Source: Candidatus Collierbacteria bacterium GW2011_GWB2_45_17 (GTDB lineage Bacteria; Patescibacteriota; Microgenomatia; UBA1400; MFAQ01). Taken from it: a DNA stretch of 64,000 nt. Numbering within the stretch: the stretch's first letter is position 1; every line of letters starts with the position of its first letter. The notes beneath the pieces were generated by a model. That model made no database searches. It saw only the letters and a list, made by a program, of their open reading frames with translations, and was not told the DNA's origin. Both the position numbers and the translations under genes were made by a program. The DNA lies in contig LCKO01000002.1 in assembly GCA_001001485.1 (NCBI GenBank), positions 47,567 through 111,566 on the forward strand. The letters are read 5' to 3'. Shown here piece after piece: positions 195 to 47,740 of this stretch.

Positions 195-500
195 CTACTC
201 CTTGGGTTCGATTAAACTTTCCGCTAAAGGCTCAATAATTTTTTCTAATATTTCCTGATCTGAGAATGTTGATGCTAACGATTGAAGAATAGAAGTTCTT
301 TGTTCTTCATCTGTTTCTTCCCATGGATTAAATTTTAAATGTTTCTCAAGTTCTGTTATGGGGTCTATCTCTTTATGTTTTAAGTCTACATTTATGCATT
401 TCACATCGATAGCTCTTTCTTTTCCGATGAATGGTATGTCATCTTTGTTGACCACAAGGACTTCGTCTCCTAATTTTGCTACTGGATAAAGTTCGTTCAT
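195..500 (-). CDS. hypothetical small acidic protein (101 aa)
   Basis: ORF track; immediately downstream of the 387-aa ORF on same strand (3-bp gap); AT-rich by eye. Confidence 0.4.
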   Translation of the reverse strand: MNELYPVAKLGDEVLVVNKDDIPFIGKERAIDVKCINVDLKHKEIDPITELEKHLKFNPWEETDEEQRTSILQSLASTFSDQEILEKIIEPLAESLIEPKE

Positions 501-502
501 TT

Positions 503-1666
503 TTAATATTCAATTAATTTAATATCTGAGTCCGGATGTGCCTCTTTAAACTTATTATATATCCTTCGCACATCTTCGACCCCATCACGATCCAATCCGT
601 TTTTAGTAGATATGTATATAGCTTCGATGTCATCAATTCTCAGTTGCCCATGAAACTGGGCTTCAGTATAACTTGATCCCCAATTTGTTTTGCTTGTTCT
701 TTCAATTTTTTCTAAAACTCCATCCACAGAATAATCTTTGATTCGCATACTTACAAAGTGAGGTTTGGAAGCTGGTGTTGGAGGCCAGTTCATTTGTCCA
801 AGGCTATCTTGGAAGGTGAGTGTTGTTTTTTGCATGGCTCGTTCCCTCTTAACTTTAACAGTCACTTCACCATATTGAGTAACATCGTTACTTGGAGGAA
901 TAGTTCCTTCATCGTTTATAGCTCCGAATTCGTTATCGGAAAAATAGCCATAAATTGGTCTAAATTCATTACTGTTTTTAACAGCTTCCTCTGGAATATC
1001 TTCTTCACGATAAATTGAAGAATGATCAAAGCCATCTGGTTCGTTAAATCCAAACATTTGCATCTCTGCTTGTGCTCTATATCTTTGGTTAAGACATCCA
1101 TTGCTTCTATTTGTTTCAAACTGGCTTTTATATCTGCCGCTATCGTTTAGCACCTTATCAAGCACATCAACATGGGTTGCTCTAAAAAAATTAGACTCTC
1201 TTACAACTTGTTCTACTTTCTCTTGTAACTTTTGTTTAAAGAGTTCTACTGTAAGTCCTGCTGATTCCGCAGCTTGTTCATATATTTCTTGATGCTCTTT
1301 TTCTGAGTCAAGAATGTTTTTTCTCATTTTGGCTTTGATTTCTGGATTAGCCTCGATATTCAGTGCTTCCCATTCACGAAAATATTTTTCTGTTGCAGCC
1401 GAAGGGAACTCATTTTTGTCGTATGAGACTTCTGCGAAGGCTGTGGGTTCTTGTATTGTGGCTTCAGTTGTTTCAAATGCTTCGGCTTCTCCTGGTTCGG
1501 AAAGTGGTTTAGTTGTTGGTAGTTCTAAATCAACAGCACTTGAACTAGCCCCCCCCAATCTTGTTCGGAATCTGGAGAGAATATCAGCACCTACTTCTTT
1601 TATAGTTTTCTTTTTTGCTTCGAACCCTGGTGACATATCCATAAATGTTTCTGCCATACACCCCAT
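503..1666 (-). CDS. hypothetical protein (387 aa), no recognisable domain
   Basis: Long ORF with even codon usage; AT-rich by eye relative to neighbours. Confidence 0.45.
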   Translation of the reverse strand: MGCMAETFMDMSPGFEAKKKTIKEVGADILSRFRTRLGGASSSAVDLELPTTKPLSEPGEAEAFETTEATIQEPTAFAEVSYDKNEFPSAATEKYFREWEALNIEANPEIKAKMRKNILDSEKEHQEIYEQAAESAGLTVELFKQKLQEKVEQVVRESNFFRATHVDVLDKVLNDSGRYKSQFETNRSNGCLNQRYRAQAEMQMFGFNEPDGFDHSSIYREEDIPEEAVKNSNEFRPIYGYFSDNEFGAINDEGTIPPSNDVTQYGEVTVKVKRERAMQKTTLTFQDSLGQMNWPPTPASKPHFVSMRIKDYSVDGVLEKIERTSKTNWGSSYTEAQFHGQLRIDDIEAIYISTKNGLDRDGVEDVRRIYNKFKEAHPDSDIKLIEY

Positions 1667-17220: not shown

Positions 17221-17733
17221 TCAAAGCTGTGTAATTTTTCCTTTTTTTTGATCTGTCCAGCTGTCACCGAGCAAATTTTCCAATAAAACTATGTATCCAT
17301 TTTGCTTGGTAGTTCTTATCCCTTCTAGCAATAATTCTTCTGGCATTTTAGTATGGTGAAGCATGTCTATAAACAAAGTCGTGTCAAAAGTAGATGCCTC
17401 AAAAGGTAATTTCTCTCCTTCTGCAAGCGAATAACCATTCTTTAAACTATCTTCCATTAGAACGTCGCCCAAATCAATAGAAAAAATATTTTTCTGATTC
17501 AAGTGGAGCTTTTCAGAAAAAGTTTTTGTTGTTTGTCCCAACCCTACTCCCACATCTAGTATTTTTTGATCAGGTCGAATGTATTTATTAAGAACTTCTC
17601 TGGTGTTTCTCCACATATCTTCTGCTCGCAATTCACCAAATATCTTTATAATTTTGTGAACAGGTTGTAATTTATTCAACTTATCTGTAACTCTACTGAT
17701 TTCATATCCTTGTTGTTCTGTCACTTCAGTCAT
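17221..17733 (-). CDS. Class I SAM-dependent methyltransferase (probably frameshifted; downstream ORF 16971..17267 likely its C-terminal continuation)
   Basis: Motif I ILDVGVGLGQTT; ORF ends in A8/T8 homopolymer (17241-17250) where a second frame continues. Confidence 0.65.
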   Translation of the reverse strand: MTEVTEQQGYEISRVTDKLNKLQPVHKIIKIFGELRAEDMWRNTREVLNKYIRPDQKILDVGVGLGQTTKTFSEKLHLNQKNIFSIDLGDVLMEDSLKNGYSLAEGEKLPFEASTFDTTLFIDMLHHTKMPEELLLEGIRTTKQNGYIVLLENLLGDSWTDQKKGKITQL

Positions 17734-19671: not shown

Positions 19672-19744
19672 GAGGCCGGAGCGGGAATTGAACCCGCGCA
19701 TAGAGGTTTTGCAGACCACCGCGTTACCACTTCGCCATCCGGCC
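19672..19744 (-). tRNA. tRNA-Cys (anticodon GCA)
   Basis: Reverse complement folds as cloverleaf: acceptor GGCCGGA/TCCGGCC, T-arm GCGGG-TTCAATT-CCCGC, anticodon loop CTGCAAA; short D-arm; one T.T mismatch in anticodon stem. Confidence 0.8.
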
Positions 19745-28760: not shown

Positions 28761-28769
28761 TATATAGAA

Positions 28770-29609
28770 ATGGTCAAAATACTATCAAAGGTTGAAGCAA
28801 TCAAATTATTGGGATTAGACGACAAAACATTTGAAAATTACTTCAAGAACGCAAGAGAATTTTTCTGTCTTCCTAGAAAAGGGAAAGAAAGATTTCGATT
28901 CGACGAGGACGAGTTAAAGCACTGGAAGAAGGACTTAATATGGCGTACTATAAATCTCAACTTTGAAGACTACGCCACTTGCCTAGATTTTGCTTTAGCT
29001 CAACATTTTCGAAAATATGTTGGTTCTGACTGGGGAACATCTAGACAAAGAGAATTTGGCCAAAAAATCACAAATTGGGTTAAGGGTCAATTGGGCGAAA
29101 TTGCCGTACAAAAATTTTTCAATAGGGAATTTGGAAAAGAAATTGAACTTGATTTCGATATTCACCCAAAGATAGTTCCCCAAGATATTATTGGAGTTTT
29201 AGAAAATCGTAAAATGAGAAAACCAAAAATAGGTGTTGGTATTAAATCTTCAAAACCAAAAAGTGCCTTTCTTGTTCTTGGAGACAAAGAGATTAAACTT
29301 AAGGAGAGGAGGTCGGATATCTATATTTATTGCCGACCAGATATCCCAGATGACCACCTTCTAAGATTGACAAAGGATTTGATCGTCAAAGCGGTAAAAG
29401 ACAAGCCACTATTCTCGAAATATAAGGACCTGCTTCCTGATTTTAATGATATTCCTTGTGAAGTAGTTGGTTGGTGTAGATACAAGGAGCTAGAAGAAGT
29501 ATCTTCCATTCCTGGGCAGGCTTTTGATAATGGAACAAGGTTTGTAAAAAAATCTGGTGAACTACACAAGAGTAAATCAGATTGGAAAAAACTTATCCAG
29601 CAACTATAG
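28770..29609 (+). CDS. Hypothetical protein; candidate restriction endonuclease partner of adjacent C5-MTase (by position only)
   Basis: Convergent with and 17-nt overlapping the 3' end of the m5C MTase gene; AT-rich by eye; no motif confidently recognised. Confidence 0.3.
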   Translation: MVKILSKVEAIKLLGLDDKTFENYFKNAREFFCLPRKGKERFRFDEDELKHWKKDLIWRTINLNFEDYATCLDFALAQHFRKYVGSDWGTSRQREFGQKITNWVKGQLGEIAVQKFFNREFGKEIELDFDIHPKIVPQDIIGVLENRKMRKPKIGVGIKSSKPKSAFLVLGDKEIKLKERRSDIYIYCRPDIPDDHLLRLTKDLIVKAVKDKPLFSKYKDLLPDFNDIPCEVVGWCRYKELEEVSSIPGQAFDNGTRFVKKSGELHKSKSDWKKLIQQL

Positions 29610-30876
29610 CTGGCTGAAAAACAAACATCTCTTCTTGATTCGATGAAACCTTTTCATTTTTACGTTTGTCTGTGATGTTCGCATAAACCCAATCATAATT
29701 TACCCCGGCAAATGTTTTTAATACTGCCTCCGAAATAATTTTAGCGGCTTTTGGCGGTACAGCCATTCCAATTTGTTTTCTTACGCTTTCTTTTGAACCT
29801 TCAAACACGAAATTGTCGGGAAAGGTTTGAATCCTTGCTCTTTCTCTGTTTGTTAAGGCTCTGTTTTCACTCCAATGATATCCGTGCGTTCCCCCACCTC
29901 CACTTCCAGTAATTGTATATGACGGTTTATCTTGGTGGAGCCTTTTATAGATTTGGCTTAATTTTGCCCCTTTTACATTCAGCTGTAGATATTTAGGAAT
30001 TGCTGAGTACCAAGCATTTTCACCTGGAGGTATATACTTTAATCTTTCTTCGACAATTTTTGATTGTGCGGTCATTTCGTTATTGGGAGCGTCTCTTTCA
30101 ATCGGAGGATTTTCTATGGCGTACTTAGCTGAAATATATTTGTTTGCGGATATGGGCGCTGGAACTCTAAATTCCAACCCCAAATCTTTTCTAATTCCTA
30201 TTATTACCACTCTGTGACGAGTTTGTGGTACCCCGTACTCTTCGAATTTATATTGATGTGCCGTAATTCTGTATCCTTCTCCAGCGTCTTCTAGATCCTC
30301 CAATATTTTTTCAAAGGCCCTACCACCATTGGCACTCTGCAGGCCACTAACATTTTCAGCCATAAACCACTTTGGATTATGTATATTTATGGCTTTGACA
30401 CCAAAGTTATACAAGGGGCCAAATTTTCCATTGAAGCCTTTTTGCTCGCCTACAACACTAAAATCATTGCATGGAAACCCAAAAGCCAAAACATCAAACG
30501 ACGGAACTTTTCTGAAATCAATTGTTTCGACCGGAGCACAAACTACTTTTGACATGTCACCGTGATGGATATTTTTTGCGTATGTTTTACACGTATTCTC
30601 ATCTATGTCATTCGCCCAAACAGGCTCAATTTCGTATATACTACCCGTTGAGTCAACAATCCTCGATGATTTTGCTCCAAAGGATAATCCTCCGGGGCCA
30701 CAAAATAGTTCAGCAAGTCTAAACTTTGTCGAATTGTTTTTTTGAATTCTATCAGCTTTCACAAGATTAAACATTCGTATAATATTTGGATATATATTAA
30801 GTAAAGCAGAATAGAAATCACGTGTCAAGCGGCACGCCGTTTGGCCAGCAGTGATTTTTGAATTCGCAAGTGGCAC
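29593..30876 (-). CDS. DNA (cytosine-5)-methyltransferase
   Basis: Motif I FCGPGG, motif IV GFPCNDFS, ENV motif FMAENVSGL; real start possibly internal Met (MFNLVK) removing overlap with upstream helicase. Confidence 0.85.
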   Translation of the reverse strand: MPLANSKITAGQTACRLTRDFYSALLNIYPNIIRMFNLVKADRIQKNNSTKFRLAELFCGPGGLSFGAKSSRIVDSTGSIYEIEPVWANDIDENTCKTYAKNIHHGDMSKVVCAPVETIDFRKVPSFDVLAFGFPCNDFSVVGEQKGFNGKFGPLYNFGVKAINIHNPKWFMAENVSGLQSANGGRAFEKILEDLEDAGEGYRITAHQYKFEEYGVPQTRHRVVIIGIRKDLGLEFRVPAPISANKYISAKYAIENPPIERDAPNNEMTAQSKIVEERLKYIPPGENAWYSAIPKYLQLNVKGAKLSQIYKRLHQDKPSYTITGSGGGGTHGYHWSENRALTNRERARIQTFPDNFVFEGSKESVRKQIGMAVPPKAAKIISEAVLKTFAGVNYDWVYANITDKRKNEKVSSNQEEMFVFQPAIVAG

Positions 30877-33800
30877 AGGTGGTGTAGACTGTAGTCCGGT
30901 CGAACTTTAGCTTCCGAATATCGGCCACCGAAGCTTTGATCACTTCTTTCAGCTCGCCCACTTCCTCCTCCGTGATATTAAAGTGTTCCCTTTTGAAAAC
31001 TCCTCCCTTATCCGGCTCGATAAAGTCGATCACTGACTGGACCACTTTGTATTTGAAGGATTTGTCCAAGTCAGCCAGTATGGTATAGAAAACCAGCTGA
31101 CGCTTGTAATCCCCATCGGAATTTTTGGTATTCCCCTCTATCTCATTCCTACTTTTGGGAGCCCCTGTCTTGTAGTCCGTAAATCGAACGTGTTTATCCT
31201 CCTTACTCGTCAGATCTATCCTATCCGCCTTTCCCGACAGGGGAATATCACCGAGCATTACTGAAGAAGATAGCGAGTCTCCAAATTTCTTCTCGGTAAA
31301 TAGACTCGGCTCAAACTCTTTCTCGTATCGATCATAGTATGCCGATAATATTTCTCTCCCGTGTTCCAATCGTGTCTTGTACTCTGCTTCCGTCAGCACT
31401 TCTCTCGCGAGAGCCACTTCAAAGTCCCGCAGGAAATCTTTTTTGGATTCCAGCTTCTCACCGTTATTCAGCCCCAAATATAGTCGTTCCAGAGCAAAGT
31501 GAACCGCTGTTCCAAAACACATGGGCGGTGCCTTCGCTCGCGGAATCTTGTAGAGGTTATCCAGCTTAAATTTATACGGACACTTGAGAAACGTATTTAA
31601 AGCCGTCGGGCTAAGCTTAAAGTCTTTGATGATTTGCAGTAGATACTCTTTCTCACCCTCGTGAATGGTCGGAGCTATTGGTACTTGCATTAGAGAGGCC
31701 AGAATCTTGGCCGCTTTTTTCTCCAGTCCTAACGTTTTAATTTTCTTTATTGTTTCTTTTGGCAGGTCTGAGAGAAACAGGGATGGATACACCATCTTTA
31801 CCGAAGAGCTGTACTTGGTAGAGCCTACTATATATAGCTCCTGCTTCGCCCGCGTCATGGCGACATAAAAAAGTCTTCGCTCCTCCGCATTCTTATCCTC
31901 CTTACTCACATCCTGCTCGTTGATGATTCCCGGTGGCAATTTGATCATCTGGCGCCTGCTGGTATTTCCCCAGTGAGTATCGGCGAAGCGATAAATGTAA
32001 ACCAGTTTCCACTCCAAGCCCTTGGCCTTGTGCGCCGTTGTCAGGGTTACGGCTTTGGTATCCGACACTAGTGTTTGCTCCGGCAGTTTCAGCCCGTTCT
32101 CTTCCATAATTCCAAGGTTAAAAACATAGCCAAAAATATCTAGACCAGAAGTTGCCGCCGCTTGTGCCTTAACATCTTCATAGAGAGTGCCAAAACGATT
32201 TAACTCGATGATCGGCTGGGGGAGAGCCAGAACATAATCAAGGAGCCCCGATTCTTGAAAAATAATCTGAAACATCTCCGGCAGAGTGTGAGAGGCCGAG
32301 CGCGAGTTCCACGACACCAGCAGATTAAACTTCTCTATCAATTCTCTATCAATCTCCGGATGAGCGTCTTGCAGGCTGTCCACCAACGTCTTTCTATTCT
32401 CGTGTGCATATCTGGCTGCTCTTAAAATAGGTAGTGGCTTGAGACCTAAATACGGATAATTCAAAATAGTAAAGAGGTCAATATCATCTACCGGACCCTG
32501 TAAACCGGTCACTACTTTGAGAATCTTCAGAAACTGGCCGACCAAAGGTGTTCTCAGCACATCCGTGCCCCCTTCCAAACGATACGGAATATTTTTTTGT
32601 TTGAAGATATTTATCAGATTATCGATATCTCTGTTTTCTTTGACGATGACCGCCATCTCTTCCGGCGGGATACCTTTCTTTATCTTTTGTTTTATCGACC
32701 GGCAAACAAATTCATCTTCCAGTACGGACGAGCTAAATTTGGCCGTCTTCACCAGCACGTCCCGATATTTCACTTTGGGGTTTAAGGGTGTTTCTCCCAT
32801 AAGGGCGGCGGAAGACTGCAGTAGACTCGGCGTCGAGCGGTAGTTATCTACCAGCTTGACCGAGGTGTGTCCCGGAAATCTTTTTTCAAAGGCCAACAAG
32901 TTTTCTTTACTGGCTCCCTGAAAACGGAAGATGGAATTATGAACGACAATGCCATTGGCTATAAAATTGTGAGAGGGGGTGACTTCGAGGTCAAAAACGG
33001 TTTTCACCTTGATTTCTTCAGTTCTGGAAATTATTTTTTCATATTTAATTTCAAACCCATTTAATACTGGTAAATAATTTCCTATGAGCAGGTTGCCCAT
33101 TTGCATGACTCTTGCAGATCTATGTTGAATTGAATTAGTTCCAATGCTTGACTTTATATCGATAAAGCCAGGCAACTCTCTTTCAAGGTTTTCTGCGATA
33201 CTGAACAATTGTTTTATATCTGTTGAGGTAATCCTAAAACCCTTGCCAATATTTTTGTTTTTCAATTTGAATCCTAATTTAGATAGCTTATCTAACACTT
33301 TTTTATTTGATGTTTGGATATTAATTTCGTGAAGAACCTCTGGGTGTTCAAGAAGACCGACCTTGGCATATTTAGTCCTGTAGCTTCTAGAGCACATCAT
33401 AAAGTTAATCTTCACCCTCCCTTTTCCAAGTGTGGTGGCCTCTCTTGAGTAGTGAGGCTCCATGAGATTTATTCCCAAATCATCGGCCAGTCTTTTTGCA
33501 TTCGAAAGTGTATCAAATTCTGCAAAAATTACCTTTATGTATTCCTGAGAAACTTTACCTCCTCGCGGTTGAAACACTATGGTAGGAATCTGATATTTTA
33601 GAGAATAGATTGTTTCTGCACAGCGAGCTTCCCATTCAGTATTATGTGAGGCGATTCCAACGATTTTATCTGCACCAGATTCCGTTTTAAGTCTAATCGA
33701 CAGACCCCTGGTAATTCCCAAACGCCAACCAACTCCTTCCTTGAACATCAGATAGTTGTACCAATAGCTGGTTTCTTCTCTCGGTGGAATGTAACAGAAC

Positions 33801-34906
33801 ATCTTGTGGTTATCGGTAGCGGTAACAGTTTTACCAGATTCTGTTGTTAGGGTGATTAGTCTTACCTTTTTGGTTTGGGAAAAAACGTTTGTAACCTTAA
33901 TGTATGAGGTATATCCTTTTCCGACGGCAGACAATACAGATTCCCCAATTTGTATATCCTTAATATTTTTTTCTCCTCCTGCTGTATTTATCTTCGTGTC
34001 GCCAGGAAGGCATTGATTGTTGTCTCCCACACAAAAAATATTTGACCTTTCTCCCCAGAAAGACGACAGAGCAAACACCAATCTATTTTGTGCCGAGTTC
34101 GTATCCTGATACTCGTCTACCAGAATGTACTGAAAATTTTCTTCGTATTGTTGTAAAAAATCCGCATCATTTTCAAACGCCTCTACCACCCAATTGATCA
34201 TGTCCTCGAAATCCAGTCTCCCCAATGCTTTTAATTTCTCCTGATATTTTTCGTAGATAAAAAGGAGATCAATATTCTTATTTACCAGCGTTTCCCTTTC
34301 GGTTCTCGCCGTCTTGCTCATTCCCCCTTTCTCTATCTCAAACTCGTCTTTGAGTATCGACACCAGCTCGGAAAACTTCTTCAAAGTAATTCCTTCTCTC
34401 TTGAGGATTGAGATACTGCCGATAATATCCTTGACATACATCAGGGGTGCATTGACGGGCTTCAAGAGTTTAAAAGAATTTTTTTCCAGAACTTCGGAAA
34501 TGAGATTGACTCTTTCCAGCTCTGTCACGTTCTGCATTCCCGCCGGCCTAGCAAACCTGTCCGGATTGTCGGCAATGATCTCATTACACAGTGCATGAAA
34601 GGTGCCGATCTTCACATAGTACCCGTCCTGACCGATAAGGCTGATGAGACGTTCCTTCATTTCTCTTGCCGCCGCATCGGTGTAGGTTAGGGCAAGAATT
34701 GAGGATGGTTCGGTATCGGTTTCTTTGAGAATATTGGCAATTCGTACCGTCAGTACTTGCGTTTTCCCGGTACCCGGACCGGCCAGCACCAGTACCGGCC
34801 CTTCGATACTATCGACGGCTTTTTTCTGAGTCGGATTTAATTTTCGATAAGCGGATTCAAAGGCAACCGTTACAGGCATGCCTAATTGTATATCGAAAAA
34901 AGTCAT
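30818..34906 (-). CDS. UvrD-family helicase fused to C-terminal PD-(D/E)XK / Cas4-like Fe-S nuclease, interrupted by an intein (1362 aa precursor)
   Basis: Walker A AGPGTGKT, motif II LVDEYQDTN, motif III split VGDNNQ|intein|SIFRFQGA; C-terminal Cys4 (C..CATCEFKNHC). Confidence 0.85.
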   Translation of the reverse strand: MTFFDIQLGMPVTVAFESAYRKLNPTQKKAVDSIEGPVLVLAGPGTGKTQVLTVRIANILKETDTEPSSILALTYTDAAAREMKERLISLIGQDGYYVKIGTFHALCNEIIADNPDRFARPAGMQNVTELERVNLISEVLEKNSFKLLKPVNAPLMYVKDIIGSISILKREGITLKKFSELVSILKDEFEIEKGGMSKTARTERETLVNKNIDLLFIYEKYQEKLKALGRLDFEDMINWVVEAFENDADFLQQYEENFQYILVDEYQDTNSAQNRLVFALSSFWGERSNIFCVGDNNQCLPGDTKINTAGGEKNIKDIQIGESVLSAVGKGYTSYIKVTNVFSQTKKVRLITLTTESGKTVTATDNHKMFCYIPPREETSYWYNYLMFKEGVGWRLGITRGLSIRLKTESGADKIVGIASHNTEWEARCAETIYSLKYQIPTIVFQPRGGKVSQEYIKVIFAEFDTLSNAKRLADDLGINLMEPHYSREATTLGKGRVKINFMMCSRSYRTKYAKVGLLEHPEVLHEINIQTSNKKVLDKLSKLGFKLKNKNIGKGFRITSTDIKQLFSIAENLERELPGFIDIKSSIGTNSIQHRSARVMQMGNLLIGNYLPVLNGFEIKYEKIISRTEEIKVKTVFDLEVTPSHNFIANGIVVHNSIFRFQGASKENLLAFEKRFPGHTSVKLVDNYRSTPSLLQSSAALMGETPLNPKVKYRDVLVKTAKFSSSVLEDEFVCRSIKQKIKKGIPPEEMAVIVKENRDIDNLINIFKQKNIPYRLEGGTDVLRTPLVGQFLKILKVVTGLQGPVDDIDLFTILNYPYLGLKPLPILRAARYAHENRKTLVDSLQDAHPEIDRELIEKFNLLVSWNSRSASHTLPEMFQIIFQESGLLDYVLALPQPIIELNRFGTLYEDVKAQAAATSGLDIFGYVFNLGIMEENGLKLPEQTLVSDTKAVTLTTAHKAKGLEWKLVYIYRFADTHWGNTSRRQMIKLPPGIINEQDVSKEDKNAEERRLFYVAMTRAKQELYIVGSTKYSSSVKMVYPSLFLSDLPKETIKKIKTLGLEKKAAKILASLMQVPIAPTIHEGEKEYLLQIIKDFKLSPTALNTFLKCPYKFKLDNLYKIPRAKAPPMCFGTAVHFALERLYLGLNNGEKLESKKDFLRDFEVALAREVLTEAEYKTRLEHGREILSAYYDRYEKEFEPSLFTEKKFGDSLSSSVMLGDIPLSGKADRIDLTSKEDKHVRFTDYKTGAPKSRNEIEGNTKNSDGDYKRQLVFYTILADLDKSFKYKVVQSVIDFIEPDKGGVFKREHFNITEEEVGELKEVIKASVADIRKLKFDRTTVYTTCATCEFKNHCWPNGVPLDT
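32936..34012 (-). mobile_element. Intein (359 aa) inserted in helicase motif III
   Basis: Starts CLPGDTKI right after VGDNNQ, block B TATDNH, ends NGIVVHN followed by S; excision restores VGDNNQSIFRFQGA. Confidence 0.8.
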
Positions 34907-34980
34907 TCCTTATTATTTATTTACCGTACCCCCCCCCCACAGTGCTTGTCAAGCTATTATTGATATAAAATATCTACACA

Positions 34981-36441
34981 GTGAAACAACAAGAACTAGG
35001 CGAATTACTGGAATATTTACTCTCACAACCAGGGGAATCTGAATGGATCGAATTCAAACATAATAATTATTCCCCAGATGATCTCGGAGAATATATCTCA
35101 GCCTTATCCAATTCAGCCTGTTTACTCGATAAACCGCGGAGCTATCTGATTTTCGGAATTGAAGACAAAACGAAAAAAGTTGTGGGAACAAATTTCAATC
35201 CAAATAAAGAAAAAGTAAGGAATCAAGAGTTATTGAATTGGCTGGATACTCAACTCCGTCCAAGCATACAGTTTACATTTAGCGTATTCTCAGAGCAAAA
35301 AACAGGATACCAAATTGTAATAATTGAAATTCACCCTGCCCCTGGTAGCCCAATTAAGTTCAAAACCGAAAGTTACATTAGAGTTGGAACATATAAAAAG
35401 AAATTAAGAGACCACGCGGGGTTAGAGAGAAGATTGTGGGAAAAATTGAACCGAAAAGATTTTGAATCACAATTAGCAACAGAGAACATTTCTTCAAGCG
35501 ACGTGCTCCGTATAATTGATTATCCAAGTTTCTTTGACATGTTAAATATACCCTTACCAGCAGACAGGGAGAGCATTCTATCTAAATTAGAAGAGGAGAG
35601 AATGATAGCTCGGAGAGGGAAATCATGCGATATTACAAATTTAGGAGCAATTCTATACGCCAAGAAACTAAGTTATTTCGAACATTTGGATAGAAAATCA
35701 ATTAGAGTAATAATATACAAAGGAGGAAACAGAAATGAATCAGCAAAGGAGCAAATTGGATTAAAGGGATATGCTACAGGCTTTGAGGGTCTTATAAGTT
35801 ATATTAACGATCAGATTCCTGCAAACGAACTAATTGGTCAGGCCATAAGAGTCAACACAAAAATGTATCCCGAGATTGCCATCAGGGAATTGGTTGCAAA
35901 CACATTGATTCACCAAGACCTTTCAATTAAAGGATCGTCCCCATTAATTGAAATATTCAACGATAGGATAGAATTCTCAAACCCAGGGAAACCCTTAATT
36001 GACACACTTCGTTTTCTAGATCATGCACCTCAAAGCAGAAATGAAAAAATCGCAAAAATGATGAGACGGGTTGGTATATGTGAAGAAAGAGGAAGTGGAA
36101 TTGACAAGGTTATTATCCAAACAGAACTCTATCAACTTCCTGCTCCAGAATTTGAAGTTGGAGATAGTTTCACAAGAGTAATTTTATTCGCTCATAAAAC
36201 ATTTTCGGAGATGGGGAAAAAGGATAGAATTCGTGCCGCATACCAACATTCATGTTTGAGATATGTTTCGAATCAACAAATGACAAACGAAAGTTTACGT
36301 AAGAGGTTCAATATTAGTGACAAGAATTATCCAATAGCCTCAAGAATTATTAACGAAGCTGTAGACGCTAAACTCGTAAAACCATTTGACCTTGAGTCAA
36401 AATCTAGGAAATACGCACGATATATACCTTTTTGGGCTTGA
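34981..36441 (+). CDS. AlbA_2 (divergent AAA / Schlafen-like DNA-binding) + HATPase_c_4 domain protein, RecG-C-terminal-like putative regulator
   Basis: N-term SEWIEFKHNNYSP..ISALSNSACLL..YLIFGIEDKTKKVVGT typical of AlbA_2; C-terminal HATPase_c_4-like region; AT-rich by eye. Confidence 0.6.
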   Translation: MKQQELGELLEYLLSQPGESEWIEFKHNNYSPDDLGEYISALSNSACLLDKPRSYLIFGIEDKTKKVVGTNFNPNKEKVRNQELLNWLDTQLRPSIQFTFSVFSEQKTGYQIVIIEIHPAPGSPIKFKTESYIRVGTYKKKLRDHAGLERRLWEKLNRKDFESQLATENISSSDVLRIIDYPSFFDMLNIPLPADRESILSKLEEERMIARRGKSCDITNLGAILYAKKLSYFEHLDRKSIRVIIYKGGNRNESAKEQIGLKGYATGFEGLISYINDQIPANELIGQAIRVNTKMYPEIAIRELVANTLIHQDLSIKGSSPLIEIFNDRIEFSNPGKPLIDTLRFLDHAPQSRNEKIAKMMRRVGICEERGSGIDKVIIQTELYQLPAPEFEVGDSFTRVILFAHKTFSEMGKKDRIRAAYQHSCLRYVSNQQMTNESLRKRFNISDKNYPIASRIINEAVDAKLVKPFDLESKSRKYARYIPFWA

Positions 36442-36445
36442 GAAC

Positions 36446-36539
36446 TCTTATGTAATCAGATATGTGAAGAATGCAAGCCATTATAATTTTAGATTGACTT
36501 ATCAATCAAATCTTATGTAACAGATATGTAACCAGATAT
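36446..36539 (+). repeat. Imperfect direct repeats (tcttatgtaa[t]cagatatgt[g/a]a) 65 bp apart plus third partial cagatat copy, intergenic
   Basis: Read directly at 36446-36470 and 36511-36533; third cagatat at 36533. Confidence 0.5.
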
Positions 36540-36570: not shown

Positions 36571-36960
36571 CTATTTCTCTTTCTTGAAAACCTTCATCAT
36601 TCCCTTGCTTTGAACAAAACCAAAGGCAACCGCCAGAAGTAGGCCTACCCACCAGCCGGAAATACCCAGTCCAAACTGTTCCGAGAATCTGGTAATCACC
36701 CACACTCCCACAAAATTTATTGCCAAGTAGCCGATCATCCATTCCTTGGTCGTGAGTGCTCTACCCAGCATTTTTTGTTTCCACTCAAACAGGGGTACAG
36801 CCAAGGTCCCGATCAAAGTCAACATCACCATACTGTGGAAGACAGCCCACCACAAATTTGAGTTGGCGTTCCCCAACACTACTTGGGCCGGAAAGAGGGC
36901 ATTGGCAATCAGAATTACTAAACTATTAAGGACCAATGAGACAAAAAAAGTAGGTGTCAT
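36571..36960 (-). CDS. Small 4-TM membrane protein (129 aa)
   Basis: ORF track; hydrophobic helices; no family assigned. Confidence 0.3.
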   Translation of the reverse strand: MTPTFFVSLVLNSLVILIANALFPAQVVLGNANSNLWWAVFHSMVMLTLIGTLAVPLFEWKQKMLGRALTTKEWMIGYLAINFVGVWVITRFSEQFGLGISGWWVGLLLAVAFGFVQSKGMMKVFKKEK

Positions 36961-37028: not shown

Positions 37029-37943
37029 ATGCTGGAATTTGAAAGAAAGAAATTAATTGAAACCGAAATTTATGAAAAACCCCTACCTTTCTTTAACCCA
37101 GAGGTTTACGAAACTCACCTTGGTCTCTCTTATCTCCGGGAGCCAGGTGTCGCCATTATTTCCATTCCTTATGTCGATCTCAGAGGTGCGCAGGGTTTCT
37201 TAGATGGTTTTCCCCGAGAATTGGAATTTTTTAAGTATCTTGAAGACCCCACTCCCATCCCGTCTTCCGAAGCCCTCTGTAAGTTTGCCGGCCAACTTTG
37301 CTTTTTGAGTCATGGCCCTCAGCGGACTATGAACAAAGATGCTCAGAAATATTTTCAAAACATCAAAGAATCTGGTCATGGATCCGTCCTGGAACACGCC
37401 AACATTTCCATTCTGCTTTGGGGAGTTTCGCGGAGCCTCACTCACGAACTGGTCCGCCATCGGGCCGGTTTTGGTTTTTCTCAAGTTTCTCAGCGGTACG
37501 TCGGAGGTCGCACTCTTCGCTTCATCGAGCGACCGGAATATGTCGACGACGCTTTTCTCCATGAACTTTTTGAAGATCGAATTGAAAGGACTCAGCGAGA
37601 ATACGAAGGTATTACCGATTATTTACTGGAAAAACAAAAAGCCGGTTCTGAAATCCTCAGTGCCGACCGTAAAACCGATCTCCGTAAAAAAGTCCGCCAG
37701 GCGGCAAGGTCTCTCTTGCCCAATGAAACCGAAGCCCCGATCGTCGTCACCGGGAATGCCCGAGCCTGGAGACATTTTCTGAACATGCGGGGTAGTGAAC
37801 ATGCCGAAATCGAGATTCGTCGTGCCGCTTTCGAAACCTACCGCTGTCTCTCTCAAGTGGCTCCGCTTCTCTTCGAGGACTTCGGCGTGGCTCACTTGCC
37901 GGACGGCACCCACGGGCTCACCACCCACTTCCCCAAAGTTTAG
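37029..37943 (+). CDS. thyX: FAD-dependent thymidylate synthase ThyX
   Basis: ThyX signature HELVRHRAGFGFSQVSQRY (RHRx7-8S..SQRY). Confidence 0.85.
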   Translation: MLEFERKKLIETEIYEKPLPFFNPEVYETHLGLSYLREPGVAIISIPYVDLRGAQGFLDGFPRELEFFKYLEDPTPIPSSEALCKFAGQLCFLSHGPQRTMNKDAQKYFQNIKESGHGSVLEHANISILLWGVSRSLTHELVRHRAGFGFSQVSQRYVGGRTLRFIERPEYVDDAFLHELFEDRIERTQREYEGITDYLLEKQKAGSEILSADRKTDLRKKVRQAARSLLPNETEAPIVVTGNARAWRHFLNMRGSEHAEIEIRRAAFETYRCLSQVAPLLFEDFGVAHLPDGTHGLTTHFPKV

Positions 37944-39013
37944 CTCTTATTTCCAAACGCCGGGGAAACTGCAAAAGGAATTTCTTCCCAGTCCTTTGAT
38001 TTTCTTACCTTTAGGTTTTTCGCCCAAACCGCGTCCAGAATTTTGGTATCTACTCCCTTGCCCCTTGCCATAGCCCTCAGAGCCAGCAGATCTTTCGGGA
38101 AACACTTCCCTCCAAATCCCTTCAGGGTGGTAATGTCCAAGTGACCGTCAAGAATTCTTTTATCCGCCACCACCATTTTCTTCACCTCTTCGTACTTTAT
38201 CCCCAGCTTTTCACAAATCTCCGCCATCTCATTGGCAAAAATAACTTTAGTCGCCAGAAAACAGTTGGCCATGTACTTCACCATCTCGGCCGAAGTCGGA
38301 TCTGTTTGGTATATCGGGGCCAGCGGTAGCACCGCCTGGTACATCGCCGACACTCTTCGGGATACCTGATCGTTGCTCGCTCCTATTACAATCCTGTCCG
38401 CATTGACAAAGTCTTGTAGAAATGAAGCTTCCCTCAGAAACTCGGGGTTAAAACAAAACAAACTCTCCGGATACTTCCTGATGTAGCCCGCCGTCGTTCC
38501 AGGAACTACTGTCGACTTGATAATGATGATTTTATCGGTACCCTTAGTCAGTTTAGCCAGGATCTTCATATTTTCATCCATAATCGATAGATCTATTCCC
38601 GACTCGTCTTCCCTAATGGGGGTTGGTAAGCAAACGAAAATATAATCGGACTTATCTACCACCTCTGCTAAAGACTCAAAATCTTTATATTTATCGTAAA
38701 CATGGATCTCGTGATTGGAAAAGCCATACTCCACCGCCTGCCCCACAAAGCCGTAGCCAATAATCCCAATTCGGAACTTTCTCTTAGTACTAAAATTTCC
38801 GCTTTGAATCACCGGCATCACCCCTCTGGCACCACCACTGTTTTGCTGTAATCTTCCCTTATCAATCAAAGTTTTTACATACTGGTGAATGGTGGGGACG
38901 CTTCTTTTAAACTTCTTGGCAATTTCCTCCAAGGTTGGCGAAAACTGATTTGCTTGATAATATTCTTCGATGAAATCAAGAATCTGCTTTTGTTTGGGGG
39001 TTATACCTAACAT
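37940..39013 (-). CDS. Fusion of LexA-type winged-HTH DNA-binding domain with UDP-glucose/GDP-mannose dehydrogenase-family NAD-binding and central domains (no obvious C-terminal UDP-binding domain)
   Basis: N-term LGITPKQKQILDFIEEYYQANQFSPTLEEIAKKF..TIHQYVKTLIDKG resembles LexA N-domain; then Rossmann IGIIGYGFVGQA and UDPG-DH central-domain-like region. Confidence 0.55.
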   Translation of the reverse strand: MLGITPKQKQILDFIEEYYQANQFSPTLEEIAKKFKRSVPTIHQYVKTLIDKGRLQQNSGGARGVMPVIQSGNFSTKRKFRIGIIGYGFVGQAVEYGFSNHEIHVYDKYKDFESLAEVVDKSDYIFVCLPTPIREDESGIDLSIMDENMKILAKLTKGTDKIIIIKSTVVPGTTAGYIRKYPESLFCFNPEFLREASFLQDFVNADRIVIGASNDQVSRRVSAMYQAVLPLAPIYQTDPTSAEMVKYMANCFLATKVIFANEMAEICEKLGIKYEEVKKMVVADKRILDGHLDITTLKGFGGKCFPKDLLALRAMARGKGVDTKILDAVWAKNLKVRKSKDWEEIPFAVSPAFGNKS

Positions 39014-45766: not shown

Positions 45767-47740
45767 TCACCAGCTGTCAATATCTTCAAAATCGTCTTTA
45801 ACCGCCTCCTCAATCTCCCAATCCTGCACAATAATCCTCTTTTTTTCCCCAAATTCATCAAAACCGTCATTGCGAGACGTAGGGGTTTGATTTATCAAAC
45901 CCGTTCGGCGTGGCAATCCAGTGTCTTGAGTTCTTGGGTTCTTGATTTCTTGAGTTCTTTGGATGTTCTCATCCGATATCTCGGATAAAAACCTTGACGG
46001 TATCGATTGATGCCTCCCCCCAAAACTAAGTCTTGATCTGGCCCACGAAAGGGTCAGATTCTCTTTTGCCCTGGTCATGGCCACGTACATGAGTCTCCTT
46101 TCTTCCTCGATCTCTTCTTTACCGCCCTCAAACATCGAGCGGGAGTGGGGGAAAAGCCCCTCTTCCAAGCCCACTACAAAAATCTCGGGAAACTCCAGCC
46201 CCTTAGCCGCGTGCACTGTCATCAAAGTCAGCTTTGCGTTTGATCGGTGTTGTTTAATCTCCGACTCCGAAAGAGCCGCGCTTTCCAAAAATAGCGCTAC
46301 ACTTTCGTACTCTCCGGCCACTGCCAACAGCTCGTTTATATTTTCGATTCTTGCCACATCTTCCTCATCCCTCTCATCAAATCTTTCCATGTAATTAATC
46401 AAATTAATTATTTCCTCCAATAGAGGTCCCGGTCGCCCTTCACTCCTTCTCTTATCAGAAAGTCTCCCGAACCATTCATCAAAAATGGCGGCTTTTCTTT
46501 TTCCGATTTTTTCAATTCTCTGCCGGCTGATTTCCTCACCCGGGTTGTGAATTAGTCGTAAATAGGCGATCAAGTCTTTTACCTCCGCTCGATTATAAAA
46601 CCGCAGTCCGCCAATCAACTTGTAGGGAATATCCCGTCTTAACAGTTCATCTTCAAACGCACGGGACTGGGCATTTGTTCGATAAAGAACTGCTACTTCC
46701 TCCCCCCGGTCACCGATTTTTTTAGATTGATCCACCACATATCTTGCTTCGTCTCTTTCATCCAGGGCTTCAAATAAATTAACTTTTTGACCCATCTCTC
46801 TGGTTGCCGAAAGTTTTAAAGTCGGATGATTAGTATTATTGCTCACCACCCCATAAGCCGCGTCCAAGATATACTGGGTGCTCCGATAATTCTTAGGCAG
46901 TCCGACCGTGGTTAGTTCGGGGTAAGTTTCTTCCAGCAGTCTCAAATTTCTATAATCTGCCCCTCTAAAAGAGTAGATGGCTTGGGCGGCGTCTCCCACC
47001 GCCGTAATATTTCGTTTTTCTCCGGCCAGCAACTTTGTCAGTTCAAACTGAGCTTTGTTGGTGTCTTGATACTCATCCACCAGTATCCACTCAAGTCGGT
47101 CGTTTACCTCTTTTCTAATCCTGTCGATTTCTAACACTTTCACCGCCTTAACCAGCAAATCATCAAAGTCCACCGCGTTGTTCCGAACCAGTCTACTCTG
47201 GTACTCACTCCAAACTTTATTAATCTGCCGGTGAAAATAATCTCTCGACACGTTTTCGGCCTCTTTTAAAGTTACCAAATCGTTTTTCATCTTACTGATC
47301 ATGGCCAAAAACATCCCCGGTTTGTTTTGCTTCGGGTCAATAGAGAGATCTTTAAGCACCTTTTTCATCACGGACTCGGAGTCTTGACTATCAAAAATTA
47401 CAAAATGGGGGCTCACTCCGACCTCCACTCCGTAGTTTCTCAGCAGTTTGGCGCAAAAAGTATGAAAAGTACCGGAAAATCCCAGATCAATCTTTTTGCC
47501 CGCCGAATTGGATGGTTTTGTGCCGATCTTTTTGATTCTTTCTTTCATCTCACCGGCCGCTTTATTGGTGAAAGTTAACAAGGCTATTTTCGTTGGGTCG
47601 ACATTTTTTTCTTTGATCAACCATGCCACTCGGTGGATCAGCACTCTTGTTTTTCCCGAACCTGCTCCGGCCAGAACCAAAAGAGGACCTTCTCCATGAG
47701 TTACCGCCACCAGCTGTTCTTTATTGAGAATATCTACCAC
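45767..47740 (-). CDS. ATP-dependent DNA helicase PcrA/UvrD/Rep family (C-terminal tail carries in-frame A+B repeats)
   Basis: AGAGSGKT Walker A, LVDEYQDTN, VGDAAQAIYSFRGA motif III intact, 657 aa. Confidence 0.9.
   Translation of the reverse strand: MVDILNKEQLVAVTHGEGPLLVLAGAGSGKTRVLIHRVAWLIKEKNVDPTKIALLTFTNKAAGEMKERIKKIGTKPSNSAGKKIDLGFSGTFHTFCAKLLRNYGVEVGVSPHFVIFDSQDSESVMKKVLKDLSIDPKQNKPGMFLAMISKMKNDLVTLKEAENVSRDYFHRQINKVWSEYQSRLVRNNAVDFDDLLVKAVKVLEIDRIRKEVNDRLEWILVDEYQDTNKAQFELTKLLAGEKRNITAVGDAAQAIYSFRGADYRNLRLLEETYPELTTVGLPKNYRSTQYILDAAYGVVSNNTNHPTLKLSATREMGQKVNLFEALDERDEARYVVDQSKKIGDRGEEVAVLYRTNAQSRAFEDELLRRDIPYKLIGGLRFYNRAEVKDLIAYLRLIHNPGEEISRQRIEKIGKRKAAIFDEWFGRLSDKRRSEGRPGPLLEEIINLINYMERFDERDEEDVARIENINELLAVAGEYESVALFLESAALSESEIKQHRSNAKLTLMTVHAAKGLEFPEIFVVGLEEGLFPHSRSMFEGGKEEIEEERRLMYVAMTRAKENLTLSWARSRLSFGGRHQSIPSRFLSEISDENIQRTQEIKNPRTQDTGLPRRTGLINQTPTSRNDGFDEFGEKKRIIVQDWEIEEAVKDDFEDIDSW
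45866..45919 (+). repeat. Family A mini-element copy A6 (gtcattgcgagacgtaggggtttgatttatcaaacccgttcggcgtggcaatcc), in-frame in helicase tail
   Basis: GTCATTGCGAG..TGGCAATC termini with internal hairpin gggtttgat-ttatcaaaccc. Confidence 0.75.
45925..45960 (+). repeat. Family B repeat copy B3 (cttgagtt cttgggtt cttgattt cttgagtt cttt), in-frame (RTQEIKNPRTQD), adjacent to A6
   Basis: Read directly; same frame usage as tsaD copy. Confidence 0.85.

Follow-up and report, generated by a model that had tools for sequence, protein, structure and literature searches.

A core helicase-nuclease gene of a Collierbacteria genome with a predicted TseI/ApeKI-type restriction-modification cassette, a Schlatpase-HTH gene and an intein in and around it

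A stretch of 64,000 nucleotides of Candidatus Collierbacteria bacterium GW2011_GWB2_45_17 (contig LCKO01000002.1; the whole stretch is referred to as the window) contains four adjacent genes between rmuC and thyX, which a preliminary description made from the letters of the sequence had grouped as a candidate defence or mobile islet. These are an ORF of 279 codons (ORF279), a gene for a C5-cytosine DNA methyltransferase (m5C MTase), a helicase-nuclease gene interrupted by an intein and a gene of the AlbA_2 family. We consider it highly likely that the region represents a core repair helicase-nuclease gene with three unrelated elements in or around it, namely a restriction-modification (R-M) cassette, a gene for a "Schlatpase" protein that carries a domain of the helix-turn-helix (HTH) type, and the intein. 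This explanation draws on homology, gene linkage, synteny, base composition, site depletion, and the conservation and co-variation of a repeat element. The coordinates and gene calls of all four ORFs proved to be correct, every domain call was confirmed by Pfam, and the 17-nt 3' overlap of ORF279 with the MTase gene (29593-29609) is real.

Identification of the R-M Cassette

ORF279 (28770-29609, plus strand, 279 aa) is, judged by its sequence, the predicted cognate restriction endonuclease of the m5C MTase, the two genes together forming a putative Type II R-M system. That the ORF could encode the endonuclease of the MTase had been proposed before, and the proposal is now supported by homology to TseI, by an invariant linkage to m5C MTase genes and by depletion of the predicted site. 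On these three grounds we regard the protein as a compact restriction enzyme of the TseI/ApeKI family with the predicted specificity GCWGC. TseI of Thermus sp. 93170, which has been purified, is a homodimer with the cleavage site G^CWGC, and ApeKI of Aeropyrum pernix is closely similar to it; the fold is unsolved (PMC3643589).

The homology was traced from several sides. The PADLOC model REase_II (PDLC03411) matches ORF279 at 5.2e-20 and is centred on a thermophile group: its matches reach 2.4e-132 for a Pyrobaculum protein and 1.7e-36 for one encoded on a Thermus plasmid. Using the Thermus protein as query, TseI (P0422, UniProt G3JXD0, 378 aa) was retrieved with 47% identity at 99% coverage. 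Direct comparison of ORF279 with TseI by BLASTP yielded 31% identity over 144 aa (E 2e-11), and alignment of the two family profiles with hhalign (99.8%, E 2.5e-28, 257 columns) paired residues 9-279 of ORF279 with residues 34-370 of TseI. Both families have the motifs D(W/F)GxSRQRxFGQ, GxLGEIAxQKF, DI(I/V)xV, IK(S/T)(S/T)K and SD(I/V)Y in common. Residues E110, D139 and K159, which are invariant in the branch of the family from the candidate phyla radiation (CPR), align with the invariant E132, D165 and K185 of the TseI family. The G/S-I-K pattern is reminiscent of the S-x-K variant of the Cfr10I/NgoMIV group.

The family is sizeable, with 619 homologues of ORF279 in a 90%-identity collection and 183 clusters obtained by an exhaustive search of a 50%-identity library. 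Among the matches listed (120 of the 619), identity to ORF279 ranged from 65 to 100%, all those named by organism were Patescibacteria/CPR or an unclassified "bacterium", and the proteins were named "hypothetical" except for one "AlpA" label. Distant homologues, likewise named "hypothetical" in their sources, are encoded on Thermus plasmids and in Thermoprotei. Searches of Pfam and NCBIfam, and of the PDB with single sequence and profile, yielded no useful match for ORF279.

The MTase gene is located on the opposite strand (29593-30774, minus strand, 393 aa from the ATG at 30774). Its product matches PF00145 (5e-71), TIGR00675 (1.2e-54) and the PADLOC model MTase_II (4.5e-115), and the motifs I (FCGPGG), IV (PCNDFS) and VI (ENV) named in the preliminary description are all present, together with VIII (QTRHR) and X (GMAVP). 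The ORF itself reaches a GTG at 30876; homologous proteins begin approximately 8-10 residues ahead of FCGPGG. The ORF is thus probably over-extended, with ATG 30774 as the likely true start, which leaves a gap of 43 nt after the helicase stop (30818) and no overlap between the two genes. Compared with the MTase linked to the Thermus TseI homologue, the target recognition domain and C-terminal part are 47% identical and the catalytic N-domain 23%.

R and M have been inherited and moved together. The same convergent overlapping pair was found in five out of five CPR contexts with unrelated flanks, the ORF279 homologue converging on a PF00145 MTase gene with an overlap of 14-17 nt, and the homologues on Thermus plasmids lie directly upstream of a gene named "DNA cytosine methyltransferase". 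As the convergent arrangement with its shared 3' end (17 nt in the window) is kept in every homologous cassette seen, we infer that transcription of R and M is probably coupled by collision or antisense effects. In four of the five homologous cassettes a LexA-like gene (LexA_DNA_bind plus Peptidase_S24) is located upstream of the MTase gene on the same strand, and in three of the five a vsr gene lies between the two. These contexts were observed in L001 (10058-11130), L113 (6950-8007), L112 (6998-7624) and a contig of JGI 3300041966 (L numbers designate the loci compared). The LexA-like gene could be a regulator carried by the cassette, or the cassette could prefer insertion beside lexA; neither Vsr nor a LexA-like gene of the cassette type was found in the window.

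The homology of the window to the related loci L009 and L012 extends as far as two stop codons, that of rmuC and that of the helicase gene, which defines the inserted cassette as 28761-30817, filling the entire space between the two stop codons. L009 represents an empty site, with approximately 40-50 nt between the 3' ends of helicase gene and rmuC.

Prediction of the Target Sequence

The target of the R-M pair is probably GCWGC, a prediction that combines the TseI homology with site depletion and the conservation of the MTase recognition domain. Palindrome frequencies were compared with the maximal-order Markov expectation for 128 words, comprising all 4-mers, all 6-mers and the 5-mers with W, S or N in the centre. 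A first scan restricted to 4- and 6-mers had found only GGCC and GATC depleted, and the GCWGC signal emerged after the centred 5-mers had been added. In the window GCWGC is the most depleted word, with 20 sites observed versus 64.1 expected (ratio 0.31, z -5.5), and 300 third-order Markov simulations of the window yielded 59.5 +/- 7.5 sites and never fewer than 38. GCWGC likewise ranks first in depletion in four unrelated loci carrying the cassette (22 versus 58.3 expected, ratio 0.38, z -4.75). Nine cassette-free Collierbacteria loci contained 156 sites versus 206.7 expected (ratio 0.75, z -3.5), and the word falls outside the ten most depleted. The sister word GCSGC is not depleted in any of the three sets (ratios 1.13 in the window, 0.92 in carriers and 1.00 in non-carriers). 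GCWGC is absent from the R, M and AlbA_2 genes. GCWGT/ACWGC, the sequence that deamination of the second C would produce, showed a ratio of 1.14-1.15 in carriers compared to 1.04 in non-carriers, a weak effect that is not significant alone.

In addition, GGCC, GATC, TGCA and GTAC are depleted (0.69-0.81) in the window and in cassette-free Collierbacteria loci (L008-L020) alike, which suggests that the lineage has long been exposed to further restriction systems with 4-base targets.

Base Composition and Synteny

The preliminary description had judged all four genes by eye as compositionally deviant. This was evaluated against the 56 gene-like ORFs of the window (mean GC content at third codon positions, GC3, 0.468, sd 0.078; GC of the window 0.448). 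Three of the genes are indeed AT-rich: ORF279 (GC 0.358, GC3 0.311), the MTase gene (0.391 and 0.308) and the AlbA_2 gene (0.365 and 0.306) rank fourth to sixth lowest in GC3 among the 56 ORFs (z about -2.0 to -2.1), and the GC3 of the R-M cassette (~0.31) compares with 0.48-0.61 in its flanks. The helicase gene does not share this deviation, its exteins having a GC3 of 0.50 and 0.54, above the mean of the window ORFs, and only the intein within it is AT-rich (GC 0.380, GC3 0.358). With host-like exteins and an AT-rich intein, the region consists of three separate AT-rich patches and not of one four-gene block. Together with their absence from relatives, the deviant composition supports a foreign origin of both the R-M pair and the AlbA_2 gene, as had been proposed.

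The helicase-nuclease gene (30818-34906, minus strand) encodes 1362 aa including the intein, with the Pfam domains UvrD-helicase, UvrD_C and PDDEXK_1. A scan of one genome per species provided 21 loci with orthologues (L006-L026), 59-87% identical over the C-terminal 703 residues (two-thirds). Where the contig reaches far enough, these genes adjoin the rmuC/metG block, thyX or both, and a number of short contigs include one flank only or no flank at all. Neither the ORF279/MTase pair nor the AlbA_2 gene is present at any of the 21 loci, with L020 and L021 showing only weaker m5C MTase matches of a different family. L009, with the order thyX, helicase, rmuC and spacers of approximately 25 nt and 40-50 nt, is an empty site for both insertions, and in L008 the membrane-protein gene and the helicase start are approximately 30 nt apart.

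From these data we conclude that the helicase-nuclease is a core UvrD/PcrA-type helicase fused to a C-terminal Cas4/AddB-like PD-(D/E)XK nuclease and stands outside the R-M system. Its proposed role as accessory or partner of the MTase does not agree with a gene that is core in 21 related genomes, none of which carries the ORF279/MTase pair, and the idea of a novel helicase-nuclease-plus-MTase system is largely refuted by the synteny. Likewise, the four genes do not form one islet; a core gene has an independent insertion on either side and a mobile intein within it. A UvrD-like paralogue of 657 aa, 28-33% identical to the helicase, is encoded approximately 11 kb away (45767-47740, minus strand), and the two may form an AdnA/AdnB-like pair; this paralogue and the adjoining rmuC fit a housekeeping role of the helicase in recombination. 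Similar UvrD-like paralogues were observed 8-10 kb from the helicase gene in several relatives.

In other relatives (L006, L008, L010 and L025) the junction between helicase gene and rmuC is occupied by 0.6-7 kb of assorted genes of roughly host GC, the gaps lying within ~0.01 of the locus mean and single ORFs ranging from 0.36 to 0.50. A dedicated defence hot spot was considered for this junction and rejected in favour of a junction that is simply plastic. In L021 (11861-13415) an ORF of 202 aa converges with an 8-nt overlap on a PF00145 MTase gene of 317 aa just 3' of the orthologous helicase gene. The 202-aa ORF has no PADLOC or Pfam match, and the two genes probably constitute another Type II R-M system, unrelated to the first, that occupies this junction.

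Three further genes of the window have a GC3 of 0.26-0.28, below that of the islet genes, and are located at 195-1666 (minus strand) and 17221-17733 (minus strand). They encode a 387-aa protein with a weak DUF3626 match, a 101-aa ORF and a 170-aa class I SAM methyltransferase, the last approximately 2 kb from a tRNA gene (19673-19744), and are probably further foreign insertions. A gene at 37940-39013 (minus strand) encodes a 357-aa protein in which a LexA-type DNA-binding domain (TIGR00498, residues 2-86) is fused to a nucleotide-sugar dehydrogenase; this fusion is 86-90% identical in seven related loci. Scans for promoters and terminators gave counts not above those in shuffled sequences.

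The Intein

The intein of 359 aa (32936-34012, minus strand) is inserted in helicase motif III, VGDxNQ/SIFRFQGA, the slash marking the site of insertion. It has the hallmarks of class 1 inteins, with Cys1 (C299), block B TDNH and a terminal HN followed by Ser+1 (VVHN/S), and matches Intein_splicing and Hint of Pfam as well as the N- and C-terminal intein models of NCBIfam. Orthologues lacking an intein read VGDPNQ/SIFRFQGA. Only one of the 21, L024, carries an intein, at the identical codon, so that both copies sit between Q and S. The two inteins are 78% identical and the corresponding exteins 67-72%, and both inteins are AT-richer than their own exteins. The insert of approximately 220 residues between the splicing blocks (intein residues ~75-340) showed no match to LAGLIDADG, HNH or other Pfam families at E <= 10.

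The Schlatpase-HTH Gene and Its Direct Repeats

The AlbA_2 gene (34981-36441, plus strand) is inserted between a membrane-protein gene (36571-36960) and the start of the helicase gene. Its product combines SLFN_AlbA_2 and HATPase_c_4 (Pfam 1.3e-19 and 4e-23) with a C-terminal winged HTH. In the AlphaFold2 (AF2) model (pLDDT 85), an N-terminal Schlafen-like domain and a GHKL fold are followed by this HTH at residues 413-480, consisting of helices 413-429, 436-443 and 447-462 plus a wing, for which no Pfam model match was obtained. Foldseek matched the model to DIP2311 (3lmm, 6e-18) and to the Schlafen N-domains of SLFN13, SLFN14 and SLFN5 (1e-5 to 4e-4); matches to the GHKL domains of histidine kinases and PDK were weaker (E >= ~6e-3). 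More than 7,900 clusters were matched by the protein, including Bacteroidota, Firmicutes, Acidobacteriota and CPR, the best non-self match being only 64% identical. In the divergent intergenic region of 74 nt between the helicase and AlbA_2 genes, the sequence reads a poly-C(10) tract (34929-34938), which could be prone to slippage or have arisen as an artefact of assembly.

According to passages of a recent preprint, the pair of SLFN_AlbA_2 and GHKL ATPase has been named the "Schlatpase" supradomain and is carried by 60,692 proteins, most of them small, with no further domain or a short C-terminal HTH; the module is exchanged with type I R-M systems, and that of the SLFN-pAgo protein RzAgo is an ATP-driven tetramer (bioRxiv 10.64898/2026.05.29.728809). 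The AlbA_2 gene of the window encodes such a Schlatpase-HTH protein and is a separate horizontal acquisition. The earlier remark that the family occurs in defence neighbourhoods holds, as one homologue (L030) lies inside an island of type I R-M and pAgo genes and many others precede genes with hsdS- or hsdR-like N-termini.

Just 3' of the gene, at 36446-36536 (plus strand), lies an operator-like element consisting of two pairs of direct repeats phased by 11 nt. The first pair is formed by ATGTAAT at 36449 and ATGTGAA at 36460, the second by ATGTAAC at 36515 and 36526. The conservation of this element was examined at 55 distinct homologue loci (within L028-L110; protein identity 44-64%) from gut, soil, groundwater and CPR, counting repeats within 150 nt after the stop codon and using 2,038 segments as control. 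At least one pair phased by 11 nt was present at 50 of the 55 loci (91%) compared to 3.9% of the controls, and at least two pairs at 62% compared to 0.15%. Within 250 nt downstream, the locus-specific repeat word occurred 135 times on the coding strand and never on the opposite strand. Upstream of the genes it was found 11 times, mostly at two loci, in one of which (L062) a second AlbA_2-like gene follows, and 16 times inside genes.

The repeat word varies by lineage and tracks the residue after a conserved Asn (N449-Y450 in the window) at the start of the third, or recognition, helix. In counts uncorrected for phylogeny, N-Y goes with ATGT(A/G)A in 17 of 17 classified loci, N-S or N-A with ATTTGA in 12 of 14, N-T with GTTTGA in four of four, and N-R with GTTTGA or GCTT(C/G)A in four of four. 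Co-oriented downstream genes often encode an hsdS- or hsdR-like N-terminus, as assigned by N-terminal sequence alone, and at the loci examined these genes start approximately 15-25 nt past the second repeat pair. A conserved promoter between the repeat pairs was considered and rejected, as some loci have a TGAtAATcA-like word and others a terminator hairpin, with no consistent layout.

The simplest reading of these patterns is that the repeats are predicted binding sites of the protein's own winged helix, the four half-sites accommodating a tetramer. The module of the window is followed by a convergent host gene and is thus an orphan. Going further, we tentatively suggest, as one possibility, that the stand-alone Schlatpase-HTH proteins (>60,000) are ATP switches with sequence-specific DNA binding, each moving together with its own operator, and gate downstream genes. 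Under this suggestion the four half-sites would match the ATP-driven Schlatpase tetramer described in the consulted passages for RzAgo, binding would gate read-through into, or initiation at, the downstream genes, and a single residue of the recognition helix would set the repeat word. The protein would then act as a "controller" for type I restriction, and the window would hold an orphan copy with its sites intact. The element may be new: no Rfam family was found at the repeats, and no description of it was found in the literature searched or, for the Schlatpase preprint, in the passages searched.

Discussion

The observations are brought together by the following scheme. A Type IIP cassette would have lodged between the 3' ends of rmuC and the helicase gene. 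Its MTase would methylate the C5 position of a cytosine in the host copies of a short palindrome, most probably GCWGC, and ORF279, probably as a homodimer, would cut unmethylated target sites in incoming DNA. Independently, the Schlatpase-HTH gene would have landed between the promoter region of the helicase gene and the upstream membrane-protein gene, bringing its own repeat pairs as putative binding sites of the C-terminal winged helix; elsewhere, this module sits just upstream of type I restriction-like genes. The third element would be the mobile intein in motif III of the helicase.

Several observations weigh against this scheme. ORF279 lacks approximately 100 aa relative to TseI, and large gaps run through the alignment of its C-terminal third, so its specificity could differ from that of TseI. 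The AF2 model of ORF279 (pLDDT 90.3, pTM 0.89) has no significant neighbour in the PDB, the best Foldseek E value being 0.31. GCWGC is mildly depleted (0.75) even in relatives lacking the cassette, and part of the signal may therefore reflect lineage history or other GCWGC systems. Moreover, the strong depletion is awkward to reconcile with the un-ameliorated GC3 of the cassette, which hints at a recent arrival. Finally, the closest homologue of the AlbA_2 protein (64% identity) is encoded in a distant CPR genome (L028, 2919-7455; GCA_034680565.1, JAXOUH010030347.1) in divergent orientation, 73 nt upstream of an orthologous UvrD-PDDEXK helicase gene, and pure independence of AlbA_2 and helicase genes does not explain this shared arrangement.

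The first of these points leads to the possibility that the genes represent a genuine Type II R-M system whose specificity is not GCWGC, the CPR subfamily having diverged in target recognition. The specificity of restriction endonucleases often changes among homologues, the identity of ORF279 to TseI is only 31% in the core, and GGCC and GGNCC are likewise depleted in the window. Nevertheless, GGCC is equally depleted in relatives without the cassette (0.69), which marks this depletion as a property of the lineage, whereas GCWGC ranks first in carriers only, and does so in two independent sets. As the recognition domain is also the part of the MTase best conserved in comparison with its Thermus TseI-linked counterpart, we regard a different specificity as unlikely.

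The arrangement in L028 raises the question of a functional coupling between the AlbA_2 gene and the helicase-nuclease, for example by regulation of the divergent helicase promoter. The two helicases are 31-48% identical and the outer flanks of the two loci differ, so that the same divergent arrangement with a 73-nt spacer recurs in an otherwise different setting. However, the AlbA_2 gene is found in none of the 21 related helicase loci, the conserved repeats are located 3' of the gene and not in the shared promoter region, and the gene is AT-rich relative to its host in both genomes (GC3 in L028 0.33 versus about 0.45). A general linkage of AlbA_2 genes with UvrD-PDDEXK helicases was considered and rejected, since only two of 80 metagenomic homologue loci have any UvrD-like gene nearby, and these are arranged differently. 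Coupling thus appears improbable; site preference, an old shared insertion or chance could each have caused the arrangement in L028.

There is very little to recommend a third possibility, that ORF279 is an "AlpA-like" DNA-binding regulator and the MTase an orphan or regulatory methylase. Beyond a weak N-terminal HTH_17 match (E 0.074), ORF279 has no Pfam or NCBIfam hit; one homologue has a precomputed PF12728 match, another is the protein named AlpA. The weak Foldseek matches of the model point in two directions, the N-terminus resembling HTH domains of the MerR/excisionase type and other matches being PD-(D/E)XK nucleases (Hjc, BglI, lambda exonuclease and the SPARDA nuclease). Against a regulator stand the homology, over almost the entire length, to TseI, a restriction enzyme that has been purified and is in commercial use (PMC3643589), the restriction-type depletion of GCWGC in carriers and the strict linkage to the MTase.

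That the four genes, or at least the helicase-nuclease and the MTase, constitute one defence system akin to DISARM, Druantia or Gabija with the helicase-nuclease as effector and the MTase as self-mark is scarcely credible, even though the helicase and MTase genes adjoin on the same strand, the helicase strongly matches the PADLOC models for GajB and the DRT-associated UvrD helicase, and L021 has a different convergent ORF and m5C MTase gene just 3' of its helicase gene: the PADLOC matches are generic to UvrD domains, the helicase is kept in 21 related genomes without this MTase, with the short spacer of L009 in place of the cassette, the five other contexts of the ORF279/MTase pair have no helicase of this kind nearby, the helicase exteins are host-like in composition and the MTase gene is not, and no partner of the OLD/GajA, DrmA/B or DruA-E type is found among the four genes.

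We therefore retain the description of a core gene with three independent additions. The R-M system itself is an ordinary addition to the known Type II kind. It provides a predicted function and a likely target, GCWGC, for a protein family without Pfam or NCBIfam model, and links this family to TseI/ApeKI, for which the question of the fold has stood open since 2013. It further indicates that very small CPR genomes, too, exchange compact R-M cassettes, and offers a route to predicted methylation marks for binning or host-linking in metagenomes. The flanks of the helicase gene are plastic and the helicase itself is core. The region calls for caution in reading adjacency as a system, the core repair gene serving here simply as a landing zone. 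The more interesting by-product is the repeat element, which provides a direct experimental handle on the very large family of Schlatpase-HTH proteins without known function.

Comparison with Known Systems

ORF279 (279 aa) and TseI (378 aa) are both partnered with an m5C MTase and differ in length by large deletions in the C-terminal half of ORF279; identity in the core is only ~31%. The two systems also differ in gene order, with ORF279 and its MTase gene convergent and overlapping and the Thermus plasmid counterparts co-directional. M.ApeKI is an m5C methyltransferase that methylates the second C of GCWGC (PMC8557920). Like M.ApeKI, the MTase of the window is a C5-cytosine MTase with the full set of conserved motifs and a nuclease partner of the TseI/ApeKI family, a likeness in which the sequence comparison itself refers to the MTase linked to the Thermus TseI homologue.

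The Schlatpase-HTH protein resembles the N-terminal module of RzAgo, as described in the passages of the preprint consulted, in its combination of PF04326 and PF13749, and has the short C-terminal HTH of the majority class of Schlatpase proteins. Unlike RzAgo, it carries no Argonaute or other effector domain and stands alone, with no defence gene downstream. The helicase-nuclease, in turn, shows the order UvrD-helicase, UvrD_C and PDDEXK_1 with a C-terminal Cys cluster, as do helicase-nucleases of the AddA/AdnAB type, from which it differs in carrying an intein and in scores that fall far short of the equivalog cut-offs for AddA, RecB and PcrA.

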